Shown: positions 36,665 through 38,848 of the stretch, piece after piece | How the letters are laid out: each line of letters begins with the position of its first letter | How positions within the stretch are numbered: the stretch's first letter is position 1 | Source: Gemmatimonadota bacterium | GTDB lineage: Bacteria > Gemmatimonadota > Gemmatimonadetes > JACCXV01 > JAHWKZ01 | Assembly: GCA_050732875.1 (NCBI GenBank) | Contig: JBOHRQ010000003.1 | Coordinates: 2,821 to 66,820, forward strand | DNA length: 64,000 nucleotides | Direction: 5' to 3' | The notes under the pieces: model-generated | What the model saw: only the letters and a program-made list of their open reading frames with translations | What the model was told of the DNA's origin: nothing | Databases searched by the model: none | Made by a program: the position numbers and the translations under genes

Positions 36665-38848
36665 CTACAGCTCGATCTGGACCAGCGACTCCTCCTTCTG
36701 CGCCTTCCGCTTGAGCACCATCTGCTCGTAGTACTCGCGGACCATCGCCGCCTCGCGGGCCGCCTTCTTGGCGGCCAGCCGCTCCTCATGGGCGTTCTGT
36801 GGGCCCTCCCCGCGATCGCGGACGCGACTGGCGTCGTCCTCGTTCACGACCAGCGCATGGTCGTAGTTCTCCAGCGGAACCGTCTTGCCTCCCGCGAAGA
36901 TCTCGTGACGCCCGTGCTCCTTGTACCACTCGGCCACCGTGGCGCTCTTGTGCATGTTCTCGATGATGTTGCGCCATCCGTGACCGGTGTTGTAGGCGCA
37001 GAACGAGATCTCGCCCTCCTGGGTGGCGTAGGGGATGATGCACATCTCGGTGCGCCGGAAGTCGTAGTTGAAGAGATCCTGGAACCACATGCCGGCGATG
37101 AAGAGGAAGTTCCACGGATCCTTCCGCCGCTCCCACACTCCGTCATGATCCAGCGAACCGTAATCATGACCCGTCAGCCCGTACGACTTGTCGAACTTCT
37201 TCAGGATGTCGATCAGCGTCAGGCTCGGCGGCCCCTGGAAGGGCTTGTAATTCTTCAGCAGCGCAAGCCCGATCATGAGGTTCGAGAACCAGCCTGCGCG
37301 GTTGGCGTCGGTGACCTTGCGGAAATCGTTCGCCAGCTCGGGGATGTCGAGGAATTGCGGGACGGGCGCGAACTCCCCGGTGTGCTTGTTGACCATCAGC
37401 GCGGTGCCGACCCCGCAGTTGGGATGGCATCCGCAGCTCACCTGTCCCCACTCGGCCTGCGGGCCGTGGACCATGTCCGCGAGATCCGAGAACGTCCCCA
37501 TCAGGGACAGTGGGAACCAGTCGCGCAGCGGCTCGGTGATCCCGAGCTGGCTCTTCACGTCGCGGGCCATGTGCGACAGGGTGTACCGCTGGCGCATGCG
37601 CCGCTCGGTCGTGATCTCGTCGTCGCGGCCGGTGAACGACACGGGCTGGAAGGCGATGAAGGCTACCTTCTTGGGATTGTCGAGAGCGAAACGAATGATC
37701 GGACCTACCTGATCGTTGTTGACGCCGTTGACGAGGGTGGTGACCAGGATCACCTGCACGCCCGCGTTGTACAGGTTGTCGATGGCCCTCAGCTTGACGT
37801 CGAACAGGTTGCCCACCTTGCGGTGGCTGTTCGCATCGTTGCCGATGCCGTCGAACTGCAGATAGCAGAAGCGCAAGCCCGCTTCCGAGCACGCCTGCGT
37901 GAACTCGGGGCTCTTCGCGAATTCGATGCCGTTGGAGGCGCACTGCACCGAGTTGTATCCGATCTCCCGGCAATGCTCGATGGCGCGCACGAAGTGCGGC
38001 GACAGGGTCGGCTCTCCGCCCGAGAACTGGATCGACATCTGCCGCCGGGGCTTGATCTGCAGCGCGTTGTCGAGGATCTCCTTGATCTCCTCCCATTCCA
38101 GCTCGTGGACGAAGCCGACCTGGTTCGCGTCCATGAAGCAGGGATCGCACATCATGTTGCACCGATTGGTCAGATCGACGGTGAGCACGGCCCCCCGGCC
38201 ATGCTTGATCGTGGACGAGCCGTGGTCGTGGAGCTTGCCGTCGTTGTGGGCCCGCAGGTCGCGACCCGGGAAGTTCATTTCGATCCACTGCAGGAAGTTG
38301 GCGTCGATCGCCATCAGGTCCTCGAAGCGTCCATGCTCCGGACACTCCTTGACCATCCACACCTGGCCGTCACGCTCGACGATCTGGGCCTTGATCTCGC
38401 CGACCTTTTCGTTGATCAGAACCTGGTAGTCCTCCTCGCCCTCGATGATGCGTTTCCGTGCCTCCACGACGCACTGCGGACACAGGGAATCGGTCTCGCG
38501 TGGCCAACCCAGCCGCGGCTTCGACTTCTCCCATGACTTGAGGAGCGGCTTGTCGCTCCATTTCGGGGTGAAAGAGGGATTCGGCCGGTACCGGTTGACG
38601 AGCTGGATGGCGCCGAAGGCAGCCGCGGCGACTTTGCAGAGCGCCCAGTCCACGCATTTGACGGCCTGCTTGCCGAGAGTCCTCTTCCCGCGGCCGTCCG
38701 GATCGAGGGCGCGGTCGGGGACCGTGAACGCACGGGTGTCGAACTCCCCGGGCTCGAGCTCGGCGACTGCCACGGCGCCGTCGTCATGGAGCGCCGTGCG
38801 CTGCGATTCCGAAGCCGGATCGACCACCTGCGTGTTGATCTTGATCAT
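36665..38848 (-). CDS. Large radical SAM enzyme of 727 aa. The architecture is atypical and the function is unknown.
   Basis: The canonical CX3CX2C motif (CNMMCDPC) sits about 230 aa into the protein. The N-terminus has paired Cys motifs (CVDWALC; CPQC...CPEHG), and further C-terminal Cys clusters occur (SCGCHPNCG; CIIPY...FCAYN). Confidence 0.8.
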   Translation of the reverse strand: MIKINTQVVDPASESQRTALHDDGAVAVAELEPGEFDTRAFTVPDRALDPDGRGKRTLGKQAVKCVDWALCKVAAAAFGAIQLVNRYRPNPSFTPKWSDKPLLKSWEKSKPRLGWPRETDSLCPQCVVEARKRIIEGEEDYQVLINEKVGEIKAQIVERDGQVWMVKECPEHGRFEDLMAIDANFLQWIEMNFPGRDLRAHNDGKLHDHGSSTIKHGRGAVLTVDLTNRCNMMCDPCFMDANQVGFVHELEWEEIKEILDNALQIKPRRQMSIQFSGGEPTLSPHFVRAIEHCREIGYNSVQCASNGIEFAKSPEFTQACSEAGLRFCYLQFDGIGNDANSHRKVGNLFDVKLRAIDNLYNAGVQVILVTTLVNGVNNDQVGPIIRFALDNPKKVAFIAFQPVSFTGRDDEITTERRMRQRYTLSHMARDVKSQLGITEPLRDWFPLSLMGTFSDLADMVHGPQAEWGQVSCGCHPNCGVGTALMVNKHTGEFAPVPQFLDIPELANDFRKVTDANRAGWFSNLMIGLALLKNYKPFQGPPSLTLIDILKKFDKSYGLTGHDYGSLDHDGVWERRKDPWNFLFIAGMWFQDLFNYDFRRTEMCIIPYATQEGEISFCAYNTGHGWRNIIENMHKSATVAEWYKEHGRHEIFAGGKTVPLENYDHALVVNEDDASRVRDRGEGPQNAHEERLAAKKAAREAAMVREYYEQMVLKRKAQKEESLVQIEL

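Follow-up and report, generated by a model that had tools for sequence, protein, structure and literature searches.

The 727-residue radical SAM protein TesL, encoded in a 64,000-nt stretch of a Gemmatimonadota genome (hereafter the window), is shown by sequence matches and by its predicted structure to be a full-length homologue of archaeal Tes/GDGT-MAS with the same four-domain fold. Judged by its residues it is still an atypical member, scoring under the Tes equivalog cutoff and lacking one metallocofactor site out of the four in Tes. Our proposal, to which we give roughly even chances, is that TesL is a bacterial paralogue of archaeal Tes, served by an NfuA-type carrier, that would couple bacterial lipid chains tail to tail (C-C) to yield iso-diabolic acid or brGDGT-type lipids. 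Such coupling by bacterial Tes homologues is already a hypothesis in the literature, where lipid synthesis by any of them is described as unconfirmed. Few terrestrial proxies of palaeotemperature and pH are in wider use than the brGDGTs, and the TesL family, which has been noticed before, is the leading candidate for the chain-coupling enzyme of aerobic brGDGT producers.

Homology, fold and metal sites of TesL

In NCBIfam, PDB sequence and PDB fold searches, Tes/GDGT-MAS was by far the best match to TesL. Residues 119-634 aligned to positions 2-483 of the 486 in the NCBIfam Tes model NF045702 (E=3e-96, 323 bits versus an equivalog cutoff of 450), residues 151-645 aligned to the PDB 7TOL sequence (E=2.7e-64), and identity to archaeal Tes/GDGT-MAS was about 29-34%. 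The AlphaFold (AF2) model (pLDDT 83, pTM 0.84) matched 7TOL and 7TOM in Foldseek with target-normalised TM-scores of 0.88-0.89 and rmsd of 3.2-3.8 Å over ~550 columns, and the matches ranking after these two covered the radical SAM core alone. The second-best family match was the TrsS radical SAM (seleno)protein (NF045646; 224 bits, residues 150-435), which shares the rubredoxin-like and radical SAM region with TesL but lies far under its cutoff of 490 and leaves the C-terminal cluster domain uncovered. Pfam recognised Zn_ribbon_HMPTM and Radical_SAM, and no SPASM/twitch family at E<=1; SPASM-family NCBIfam models matched only the radical SAM core (~220-420), with 30-70 bits against cutoffs of 265-650. 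In both the 7TOL alignment and the fold, the C-terminal domain matches GDGT-MAS rather than SPASM/twitch. The original prediction of a radical SAM enzyme with several metal centres is thereby supported, and its idea of a tetraether or membrane-spanning lipid synthase was borne out as homology and fold only. Its view that no characterised family could be assigned is largely overturned by the strong, nearly full-length Tes match, and the SPASM/twitch or BtrN-like relationship that it suggested testing found no Pfam counterpart. More than 8000 TesL homologues were returned by our homologue search, and an identical protein is on deposit from a Gemmatimonadota MAG (P0001). Coordinates of all features are collected in Table 1.

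Table 1. Features of the TesL locus, in window positions.
Feature	Position	Strand	Basis or remark
NfuA-type Fe-S cluster carrier (A-type + Nfu domains)	35906..36544	plus	convergent with TesL; Pfam Fe-S_biosyn + NifU
Bidirectional intrinsic terminator	36586..36619	both	between convergent TesL and NfuA; sequence and RNA folding
TesL, complete CDS with stop	36665..38848	minus	ORF and translation; 727 aa, Tes/GDGT-MAS-like radical SAM
TesL residues 651-727, clade-specific C-terminal tail (HGRHEIFAGG...)	36668..36898	minus	with charged helix 686-712
TesL residues 440-650, putative C-terminal auxiliary-cluster and lipid-pocket domain	36899..37531	minus	alignments with 7TOL and representatives
TesL residues 221-430, radical SAM partial TIM-barrel core	37559..38188	minus	PF04055 at 226-388, E=2e-18
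TesL residues 230-237, CX3CX2C motif CNMMCDPC (C230/C234/C237)	38138..38161	minus	invariant 77/77
TesL residues 196-219, loop at the GDGT-MAS [Fe4S4]N position	38192..38263	minus	alignment with 7TOL and 25 representatives
TesL residues 116-180, rubredoxin-like Fe site C123-x2-C126...C169-x2-H172	38309..38503	minus	PF23545, E=3e-16
TesL residues 58-87, conserved amphipathic helix (predicted) with CVDWALC	38588..38677	minus	model pLDDT 75-96
TesL residues 1-55, predicted disordered N-terminus	38684..38848	minus	pLDDT <50 for 1-42
Shine-Dalgarno GGAGG	38854..38858	minus	read from sequence; 5 nt from TesL ATG
Sigma-70-like promoter match TTTACA-17-TACTAT	38897..38925	minus	in the 97-nt rSAM2-TesL gap
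rSAM2, ~393-aa twitch/partial-SPASM radical SAM protein	38946..40127	minus	directly upstream of TesL, same strand

Conservation was counted over 77 aligned family members, in which 11 cysteines are invariant (123, 126, 169, 230, 234, 237, 472, 474, 478, 603 and 617). The motifs listed in the original prediction are literally present: CNMMCDPC at C230/C234/C237, SCGCHPNCG comprising C472/C474/C478, CIIPY with C603, and FCAYN with C617. Also present is CPQC...CPEHG, which had been read as zinc-ribbon-like; its residues (C123/C126...C169/H172, all 77/77) match the rubredoxin-like Fe site of GDGT-MAS, although the spacer is 42-43 residues in the TesL family versus 20 in GDGT-MAS (C9x2C12x20C33x2H36), the TesL knuckle carrying an insertion of ~22 residues. 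The radical SAM core has alternating β and α elements in the model and aligns with that of 7TOL. Beyond it, C478, C603, C617 and M587 align with the [Fe4S4]C ligands of GDGT-MAS (M587 corresponding to Met439) and Y607 aligns with Tyr459, each invariant in 77/77; the roles of this cluster, of the labile Met439 and of Tyr459 were described by Lloyd 2022. We regard C478/C603/C617 and M587 as the equivalent, putative ligands of a catalytic C-terminal [4Fe-4S] cluster, beside which the extra C472 and C474 are also invariant. The extension after the core thus exists as predicted, but it measures ~340 residues past the Pfam domain (226-388) and not ~450.

The missing site is that of [Fe4S4]N, whose GDGT-MAS ligands are C73, C77, C80 and a His. 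At the aligned loop archaeal-type sequences read CPxxCGxCxxH, versus GKLHDHGSSTIKH in TesL: all three Cys ligands are gone, and 76 of the 77 family members have no Cys there at all. The loop is modelled with a pLDDT of 55-69 and retains D197, H201, D203, H207, H209, G210 and G217-R218-G219 in every member.

Both ends of the protein are also distinctive. Residues 1-55 occur only in Gemmatimonadota-type homologues, those of other phyla aligning from ~56-63. The helix that follows is absent from archaeal Tes in our alignments and has a hydrophobic moment of 1.3 and a maximal KD19 of 0.2-1.5 across the family. A transmembrane anchor was considered for this helix and rejected: in most members the hydropathy falls below the usual transmembrane range, and an amphipathic helix is more likely. 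It contains the CVDWALC pair once taken for a zinc ribbon, whose C65 and C71 are conserved in only 1% and 39% of the 77 members; as a metal site the pair was rejected on these figures and on its place in the predicted helix. The C-terminal tail of ~80 residues is found in the clade without the N-cluster and not in archaeal-type Tes, with 40-50% column identity across the family; the charged C-terminus of the original prediction is recovered in the model as the helix listed in Table 1.

Archaeal Tes (MJ0619, 7TOL/7TOM, NF045702, IPR034474) and TesL therefore have in common the four-domain fold (TM 0.89), the rubredoxin-like C-x2-C...C-x2-H, the CX3CX2C motif, the C-terminal Cys triad, the Met/Tyr equivalents and the lipid-pocket domain. 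TesL is set apart by the absent [Fe4S4]N Cys ligands, the His/Asp-rich loop, the rubredoxin insertion, the N-terminal helix and the C-terminal tail, and by a host that is an aerobic diderm bacterium with fatty-acid lipids, in contrast to the phytanyl lipids of archaeal Tes.

Long, short and degenerate Tes-type proteins in bacteria

The long TesL clade is present in at least 596 species genomes, the majority from Acidobacteriota (Pyrinomonadaceae/Blastocatellia, Solibacteraceae/Bryobacterales and Terriglobia) together with some Gemmatimonadota, and its acidobacterial lineages include groups known in the literature for iso-diabolic acid and brGDGTs. The cultured brGDGT producer S. usitatus encodes a 714-aa protein, Acid_2410, which resembles archaeal Tes as closely as TesL does (30%, 4e-62) and which we infer to be the TesL orthologue, within the long clade without the N-cluster; when a Solibacteraceae member served as query, the species was absent from the best 120 matches of the homologue search. 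S. usitatus also possesses a short archaeal-type Tes homologue, Acid_5929 (545 aa, 40% identical to MA_1486), other short examples being P0158, P0162, P0171 and P0172. Like TesL these are bacterial, belong to the same superfamily and have been proposed in the literature as candidate brGDGT synthases. Unlike TesL, they have retained CPxxCGxCxxH, the motif of [Fe4S4]N, span about 500-630 residues and group with archaeal Tes in a distance tree in which TesL falls in the separate long clade. Literature searches for experimental work on Acid_2410 or Acid_5929, and for a link between Gemmatimonadota and brGDGTs, returned nothing.

A sister branch of the TesL clade, which includes the cultured Terriglobus roseus, no longer has the ligands for the catalytic cluster of the C-terminal domain, and Tes-type chemistry therefore cannot explain organisms of the T. 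roseus type. Among the cluster members of 20 family proteins this species, from the degenerate branch, is the sole cultured carrier. T. roseus belongs to subdivision 1, whose members are rich in iso-diabolic acid. On these alignments the bacterial Tes homologues comprise at least two structurally different enzymes, the short archaeal-type one having four metal centres and the long one no N-terminal cluster, and a third, degenerate branch without the catalytic cluster, and surveys that count every Tes BLAST match as brGDGT potential would mix short, long and degenerate classes.

Genomic context and the proposed reaction

The NfuA-type gene convergent with TesL scores 126 bits against TIGR03341 (NfuA), which is below the cutoff. 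An NfuA-type gene adjoins TesL in 5 more Gemmatimonadota loci, where it is downstream and convergent, as well as in 4 Acidobacteriota-type loci, where it is upstream and divergent, so that the adjacency recurs in two arrangements and two phyla; A-type carriers lie ~1.2 kb downstream of TesL in 4 further loci. On the other side, rSAM2, whose start we placed at Met97 of its ORF from homologue lengths, has the motif CNYGCSFC and five more invariant cysteines (C303, C321, C354, C357 and C361). Radical_SAM is its sole Pfam match, with no named NCBIfam family and no extra domain detected, and its best folds are BlsE/SkfB/CteB/DesII (TM 0.5-0.7). In 7/7 Gemmatimonadota loci, as in locus L085, it is the gene directly upstream of TesL, and it was rejected as a general TesL partner, being limited to these; rSAM2-like genes near acidobacterial TesL are a MoaA and a generic SPASM enzyme (L020 and L024, respectively). 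The rSAM2 family yielded only 374 matches, confined to Gemmatimonadota-type and Planctomycetota genomes; in Planctomycetota the partner of the homologues is a B12-domain-like ORF instead of Tes. By description, rSAM2 is comparable to the GMGT synthase Gms, a SPASM/twitch radical SAM enzyme found clustered with tes in certain bacteria (Garcia 2024), in being a twitch/SPASM-type protein beside a tes-like gene. The definition of Gms asks for a COG4001 domain and a length of at least 400 aa (Garcia 2024), and as a candidate Gms the ~393-aa rSAM2 gained no supporting domain or family match.

In the neighbourhood analysis, 17 window proteins were searched with tblastn against 82 loci and the ORFs of 997 neighbours were clustered de novo. 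Among the 82 loci there was no family-wide TesL neighbour and no conserved lipid-biosynthesis neighbour; the largest cluster was SurE (17/82), the others being housekeeping genes. Sugar-nucleotide genes flank TesL in only 3-6 of the 82, all of them closely related Gemmatimonadota. Because no neighbour is family-wide, we dropped the sugar-nucleotide context as functional evidence, and with it the carbohydrate role that had originally been suggested from the neighbours.

In the coupling reaction that we propose, TesL would act as a peripheral membrane enzyme binding two glycerolipids. One acyl or alkyl chain would lose H at its terminal (iso-methyl) carbon to a 5'-deoxyadenosyl radical, and the substrate radical would be stored on the C-terminal cluster in the form of a C-S adduct; following a second SAM cleavage the second chain would be coupled to it, giving a membrane-spanning C30-type (iso-diabolic-acid-like) chain as the core step towards brGTGT/brGDGT-type lipids. 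The NfuA-type carrier may supply TesL with clusters or repair them, especially the catalytic cluster, which is exposed, and in Gemmatimonadota rSAM2 might carry out either an additional radical reaction on this lipid or some accessory step. Consistent with coupling are the Tes-like sequence and fold, the spread of the clade through acidobacterial groups that include known iso-diabolic acid and brGDGT makers, the long Tes homologue of the brGDGT producer S. usitatus, the NfuA adjacency in two phyla, the invariance (77/77) of the radical SAM, rubredoxin-like and [Fe4S4]C-type ligands together with M587 and Y607, the ability of GDGT-MAS's active site to bind ester-linked bacterial phospholipids (Lloyd 2022), and the absence of Mss homologues from Acidobacteria (Sahonero-Canavesi 2022). 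Mss, from Thermotoga/Thermoanaerobacter, is a radical SAM enzyme for which the joining of two fatty-acyl tails to form diabolic/iso-diabolic acids has been demonstrated, the very reaction proposed for TesL, but is only remotely related to Tes and found in anaerobes (Sahonero-Canavesi 2022), features that by description set it apart from TesL. The literature also reports that low O2 induces brGDGTs in Acidobacteria, which fits an O2-sensitive radical SAM step. On the other hand, Tes homologues occur in only 3/14 iso-diabolic-acid-producing acidobacteria, for which another pathway has been argued (Sahonero-Canavesi 2022). Ligand loss in the sister branch, the score under the Tes cutoff, the missing cofactor site, the lack of a conserved lipid-biosynthesis neighbour among the 82 loci and the empty literature search for brGDGTs in Gemmatimonadota count against coupling as well.

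We think it unlikely that TesL acts on lipid tails by some radical reaction other than intermolecular tail-to-tail coupling, whether intramolecular macrocyclisation, Gms-like chain-to-chain bridging, ring formation or terminal-carbon functionalisation with sulfur or another group. A divergent sequence (about 30-35% identity, under the equivalog cutoff) that has kept the Tes fold and lipid-pocket domain while missing one cofactor would suit such a reaction, as does the C-S lipid adduct made by GDGT-MAS (Lloyd 2022), and the shorter archaeal-type Tes homologue of S. usitatus could then be the true coupling enzyme. In the functionalisation variant the C-terminal cluster would be a sacrificial donor that NfuA rebuilds as it does for LipA, and the recurrent NfuA adjacency and the invariant C472 and C474 beside the catalytic cluster would be in keeping with this. 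NfuA reportedly regenerates the LipA cluster, a precedent for a sacrificial cluster that is attributed to McCarthy and Booker in 2017. However, C474 is frequent in archaeal-type Tes too, and the extra Cys of TesL are therefore not distinctive; moreover, the Met439/Tyr459 equivalents and the three cluster Cys are exactly as in the coupling enzyme, and the region near TesL holds no second Tes-type gene in most sampled genomes. We also know of no thiolated bacterial lipids of the kind that this would produce.

Quite improbable, in our estimation, is a non-lipid or envelope-glycan substrate tied to sugar-nucleotide/LPS genes, on which TesL or the rSAM2-TesL pair would act. The pair does sit among HldE, GMD, two UDP-sugar dehydrogenases and UXS/ArnA-like, TviC-like, GalE-like and BamD genes, and the sugar-nucleotide-modifying BlsE and DesII are among the best structural matches of rSAM2, but this likeness is of a generic twitch-domain kind (14-16% identity), the sugar genes are restricted to the few loci given above, L085 has rSAM2-TesL without them, and acidobacterial TesL neighbours are unrelated housekeeping genes (SurE, PCMT, DedA, QueG and PGM). 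TesL has, besides, kept the whole lipid-binding C-terminal domain of GDGT-MAS. The automatic annotation of several family members by JGI, and the Pfam name HMPTM, would make TesL a pterin methyltransferase (7,8-dihydro-6-hydroxymethylpterin dimethyltransferase), which we hold to be scarcely credible. That name stems from MJ0619, for which Lloyd 2022 could not corroborate it, showing instead that MJ0619 is GDGT-MAS, whose hydrophobic lipid tunnel does not suit a pterin. A Pterin_4a gene does adjoin a homologue, but in one locus only (L001) and not among the recurrent neighbours. To our knowledge, methanopterin synthesis is not known in the host bacteria.

Returning to coupling, the solvent-exposed N-cluster may have been lost in the course of adapting to aerobic hosts. 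Although doubtful, it is tempting to see the long clade as the oxygen-tolerant enzyme, so far missing, that makes membrane-spanning lipids in aerobic soil bacteria. In this enzyme a His/Asp (H201/D203/H207/H209) metal or docking site would replace [4Fe-4S]N and a dedicated NfuA-type carrier would serve the catalytic cluster. Were this so, its presence in Gemmatimonadota, an abundant soil phylum, together with a lineage-specific second radical SAM enzyme, would mean that the phylum is an overlooked origin of palaeothermometry lipids of brGDGT type, perhaps further modified. If TesL is instead no coupling enzyme, it offers a natural experiment as to which metallocofactors GDGT-MAS could do without, a question left by Lloyd et al. 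Sharper experiments can be designed from the two or three Tes classes, the recurrence of NfuA next to the long form, and the coupling of the Gemmatimonadota long form to a second radical SAM enzyme.

Gene boundaries and expression signals

The ORF of 727 codons is real, as originally predicted, and can now be assigned to the minus strand, none having been given before; its codon bias resembles that of real genes of the genome (GC1/2/3 = 0.61/0.39/0.89; window GC 68.5%). A Shine-Dalgarno sequence precedes the ATG (Table 1), and the sigma-70-like match in the gap to rSAM2 agrees with the consensus at 9/12 positions. With 2 such sites seen against 0.6 expected, it is suggestive only as a candidate TesL promoter. 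Searching the whole window against Rfam matched no RNA family. Past the TesL stop lies a strong bidirectional terminator with the layout A6 - CGGGCGACC - tgcgt - GGTCGCCCG - T5, which a simple terminator scan missed and which was spotted by eye and then confirmed by RNA folding: its GC-rich 9-bp stem has a dG of -25.4 and -26.3 kcal/mol on the two strands, with z -5.8 on both and 0/200 shuffles folding equally well.

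The TesL gene and its family

TesL, the 727-aa radical SAM protein of the window, is encoded by a real and intact gene. Against a window GC content of 68.5%, its GC1/GC2/GC3 values of 0.61/0.39/0.89 follow the pattern of other real genes in the window; a ribosome-binding motif precedes its ATG (see table), a Gemmatimonadota MAG has contributed an identical protein to the databases, and the homologue search yielded over 8000 sequences. The terminator shared with the convergent Fe-S carrier gene NfuA lies 3' of the TesL stop, its 9-bp GC-rich stem set between an A-run and a T-run (ΔG about -25 kcal/mol, z = -5.8, on either strand); the consensus terminator scan did not pick it up. 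Sigma-70-like consensus matches 5' of TesL and of rSAM2, the second radical SAM gene directly upstream, are only suggestive of promoters.

Selected features of the window
Feature	Position	Strand	Basis or remark
TesL ORF, 727 codons	36665..38848	minus	ORF and translation
His/Asp-rich loop of TesL, residues 196-219	38192-38263	minus	replaces [Fe4S4]N ligands; low pLDDT
Shine-Dalgarno GGAGG	5 nt 5' of TesL ATG	minus	read from sequence
Bidirectional intrinsic terminator, convergent TesL/NfuA gap	36586-36619	both	hairpin and RNA folding
rSAM2, ~393 aa counted from Met97 of ORF	38946-40127	minus	ORF
UDP-glucose/GDP-mannose-type dehydrogenase with intein	41309-44353	minus	
Homocysteine S-methyltransferase/methylenetetrahydrofolate reductase fusion, 716 aa as listed	55942-58092	minus	one ORF

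Each Cys motif quoted in the original prediction is found in TesL where it was said to lie. Pfam recognizes Zn_ribbon_HMPTM at residues 116-180 and Radical_SAM at 226-388. Among NCBIfam models the one for tetraether lipid synthase Tes, NF045702, comes first with E = 3e-96; it aligns over model positions 2-483 of 486 with TesL residues 119-634 at 323 bits, under the curated equivalog cutoff of 450. The best PDB sequence match is 7TOL, the tetraether lipid synthase (GDGT-MAS) of Methanocaldococcus jannaschii (E = 2.7e-64, TesL residues 151-645), all others being confined to the radical SAM core. An AlphaFold2 model built from a 37-sequence alignment (pLDDT 83, pTM 0.84) gave target-normalised TM scores of 0.88-0.89 against 7TOL/7TOM, and the next fold matches (SkfB, MoaA and viperin) reached 0.4-0.7 over the core only. 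The earlier suggestion of a tetraether or membrane-spanning lipid synthase was therefore right for homology and fold, and the view that TesL could not be placed in a family does not stand. Database names for the family are ‘radical SAM protein’, the obsolete ‘pterin dimethyltransferase’ and, rarely, ‘tetraether lipid synthase’. Many members are still called ‘7,8-dihydro-6-hydroxymethylpterin dimethyltransferase’, an obsolete name that stems from MJ0619 and is kept in the Pfam name Zn_ribbon_HMPTM.

Tes homologues in bacteria became known together with Tes itself and were put forward as brGDGT synthases (Zeng 2022), and they are included in a published similarity network (Lloyd 2022, PMC9433317). 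Since both the family and a proposed role were already known, the description of TesL as unassignable and of unknown function is largely deflated. The brGDGT producer S. usitatus has two Tes homologues, Acid_5929 (545 aa, 40% identity to archaeal Tes) and Acid_2410 (714 aa, 30% identity, E = 4e-62) (Halamka 2022). TesL resembles the latter in length and in similarity to archaeal Tes, and we infer that the two are probably orthologous. As late as 2026, reviews and surveys describe the bacterial homologues as unconfirmed, and our literature search returned no paper testing Acid_2410 or Acid_5929 and none tying Gemmatimonadota to brGDGTs.

Metal sites and the long clade

GDGT-MAS holds four metallocofactors. 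A rubredoxin-like Fe is bound by C9x2C12x20C33x2H36, and the N-terminal cluster, [Fe4S4]N, sits at the surface with C73, C77, C80 and a His as ligands, in the sequence CPYDCGLCPNH. Besides the radical SAM cluster there is a C-terminal one, [Fe4S4]C, of which Met439 is a labile ligand and to which the first lipid radical becomes joined through a C-S bond; across 1000 archaeal homologues both Met439 and Tyr459 are kept (Lloyd et al. 2022, PMC9433317). We aligned TesL with 76 genome-derived family members, and separately with 25 divergent full-length representatives and 7TOL. The rubredoxin-like site (C123/C126/C169/H172), the radical SAM cluster (C230/C234/C237), the equivalents of the [Fe4S4]C ligands (C478/C603/C617 plus M587) and that of Tyr459 (Y607) are invariant in 77/77 sequences. 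C472 and C474 are likewise invariant in the family, C474 being frequent in archaeal-type Tes as well.

The [Fe4S4]N site differs: where archaeal-type enzymes have CPxxCGxCxxH, TesL has GKLHDHGSSTIKH, and the equivalent loop is free of Cys in 76 of the 77 family members. As D197, H201, D203, H207, H209, G210 and G217-R218-G219 are invariant in the family alignment, this loop has not decayed. Such conservation suggests a replacement function, as a different metal site or a surface for docking, and the five His and Asp residues may form a new metal site; the absence of the surface cluster may reflect life with oxygen. What is new is a structurally distinct Tes variant, with one Tes-type metal site fewer (three against four), a conserved His/Asp loop where [Fe4S4]N would be, and added terminal elements; in the literature on bacterial Tes homologues we found no statement that the long form is without [Fe4S4]N.

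All sequences without the N-cluster fall in one clade, apart from archaeal-type Tes, in a distance tree of the conserved core that, as neighbour-joining only, is indicative. Specific to this long clade are an N-terminal helix and a C-terminal tail, in which HGRHxIFAGG... leads into a charged helix (686-712), and its rubredoxin knuckle spacer has 42-43 residues versus 20 in GDGT-MAS. Residues 1-55 of TesL occur in Gemmatimonadota-type members only and are predicted to be disordered. The motif CVDWALC had been taken for a metal-binding pair, a reading that conservation contradicts (C65 in 1% and C71 in 39% of members); both residues sit in an amphipathic helix predicted for positions 58-87 (30 residues, hydrophobic moment 1.3), whose hydropathy is under the transmembrane range in most members. 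Inside the long clade a sister branch has lost the Cys of the C-terminal catalytic cluster together with the N-cluster and keeps the radical SAM motif; it includes P0130 (cultured Terriglobus roseus DSM 18391, WP_014786616.1), P0141, P0142 and P0169. This degenerate branch is found in subdivision-1 Acidobacteria, which are known for abundant iso-diabolic acid.

Proposed chemistry and its alternatives

The fold, cofactor sites and conservation of TesL are firm, and for its reaction we propose a GDGT-MAS-like coupling of iso-branched lipid chains, a mechanism to which, as a whole, we give about an even chance. TesL would bind two glycerolipids, a 5'-deoxyadenosyl radical would take a terminal hydrogen from the first chain, the resulting lipid radical would be held at the C-terminal cluster in a C-S adduct, and the second chain would then be coupled in GDGT-MAS fashion, with iso-branched fatty acyl or alkyl chains as substrates. 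Such chains end in the same isopropyl group as phytanyl, as Zeng 2022 argued, and GDGT-MAS binds ester-linked E. coli phospholipids (Lloyd 2022, PMC9433317). Counting against coupling are the degenerate Terriglobus branch, the lack of lipid genes among conserved neighbours, and the incomplete overlap of iso-diabolic-acid producers with carriers of Tes homologues: these were found in only 3/14 producers, and another pathway has been suggested (Sahonero-Canavesi 2022). The same study identified the unrelated membrane-spanning lipid synthase Mss in anaerobes and found Acidobacteria to be without mss.

Some other radical chemistry on lipids, in which a cluster may be sacrificed, is an unlikely if serious alternative to such coupling. 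A good deal less probable is an envelope glycan or other non-lipid substrate. Genes for HldE, GMD, two UDP-sugar dehydrogenases (one of them with an intein) and UXS-, TviC- and GalE-like SDRs do lie next to TesL in the window, and a carbohydrate role had been drawn from these neighbours, but sugar-nucleotide genes accompany TesL in only 3-6 of 82 loci, all from the few Gemmatimonadota relatives, and de novo clustering of 997 neighbouring ORFs from the 82 loci gave no family-wide neighbour; for TesL the carbohydrate hypothesis is therefore rejected. Acidobacterial loci have SurE, PCMT, DedA, QueG, PGM, DivIC and others instead. That TesL is a legacy pterin methyltransferase, as the older database names would have it, is scarcely credible, and what is left of the probability is given to no named reading. 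The variant bears on the long-standing question of who makes brGDGTs, and how, which could already be tested via the acidobacterial homologues.

Distribution and neighbouring genes

With each species represented by a single genome, relatives are encoded in at least 596 genomes. The best 80 of these comprise six Gemmatimonadota at 78-94% identity, one Eisenbacteria and, for the most part, Acidobacteriota (Pyrinomonadaceae, Blastocatellia, Chloracidobacterium, Solibacteraceae, Bryobacterales, Terriglobia and Acidiferrales) at 65-75% identity, which is high conservation for a comparison between phyla. Because only six Gemmatimonadota species are among the top matches to a Gemmatimonadota query, the gene is apparently scattered among Gemmatimonadota and may have spread by lateral transfer.

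The TesL region is core chromosomal (NusA, GuaA, HisRS, UvrB, RelA/SpoT, Rho, SecA, BamD, FtsK and EF-P). An NfuA-type carrier adjoins TesL downstream and convergently in this window and at five other Gemmatimonadota loci, and upstream and divergently in four distant loci (L001, L011, L016 and L081); another four loci have an A-type carrier about 1.2 kb downstream. The recurrence of this neighbour in two phyla, arranged differently, speaks for a functional link, in which NfuA might deliver or repair the TesL clusters. This link is new, as is the two-radical-SAM unit in Gemmatimonadota. Elsewhere in the window, one ORF fuses two enzyme domains (see table). One of the UDP-sugar dehydrogenases near TesL (N-terminal/central domains 115-373, C-terminal domain 903-1001) is split by an intein that carries a LAGLIDADG homing endonuclease (Intein_splicing/LAGLIDADG 384-845), its 443-aa orthologue at locus L002 being without intein.

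The second radical SAM protein, rSAM2, has a CNYGCSFC motif plus five invariant C-terminal Cys and a predicted twitch/partial-SPASM fold (best matches BlsE, SkfB, CteB and DesII), and belongs to a small, unnamed family of 374 hits. It lies directly 5' of TesL on the same strand in 7/7 Gemmatimonadota loci and in locus L085, where, on a 4.6-Mb contig, an ABC transporter ATPase and ABC-2 permease (11599-13642) directly follow the pair and could export or flip its product. Seemingly rSAM2-like genes beside two acidobacterial TesL genes are in fact MoaA and a generic SPASM enzyme. As only the Gemmatimonadota loci and L085 keep the pair and the acidobacterial look-alikes are other enzymes, rSAM2 is a lineage-restricted partner of TesL. 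In Planctomycetota, reported as carrying Tes and GrsA homologues, the rSAM2 homologues (Phycisphaerae, ~340 aa) always come after an ORF of ~460 aa that gives a sub-threshold match to a B12-binding domain (L083/L084 6547-9023; L086 6340-9032), a second conserved pair.
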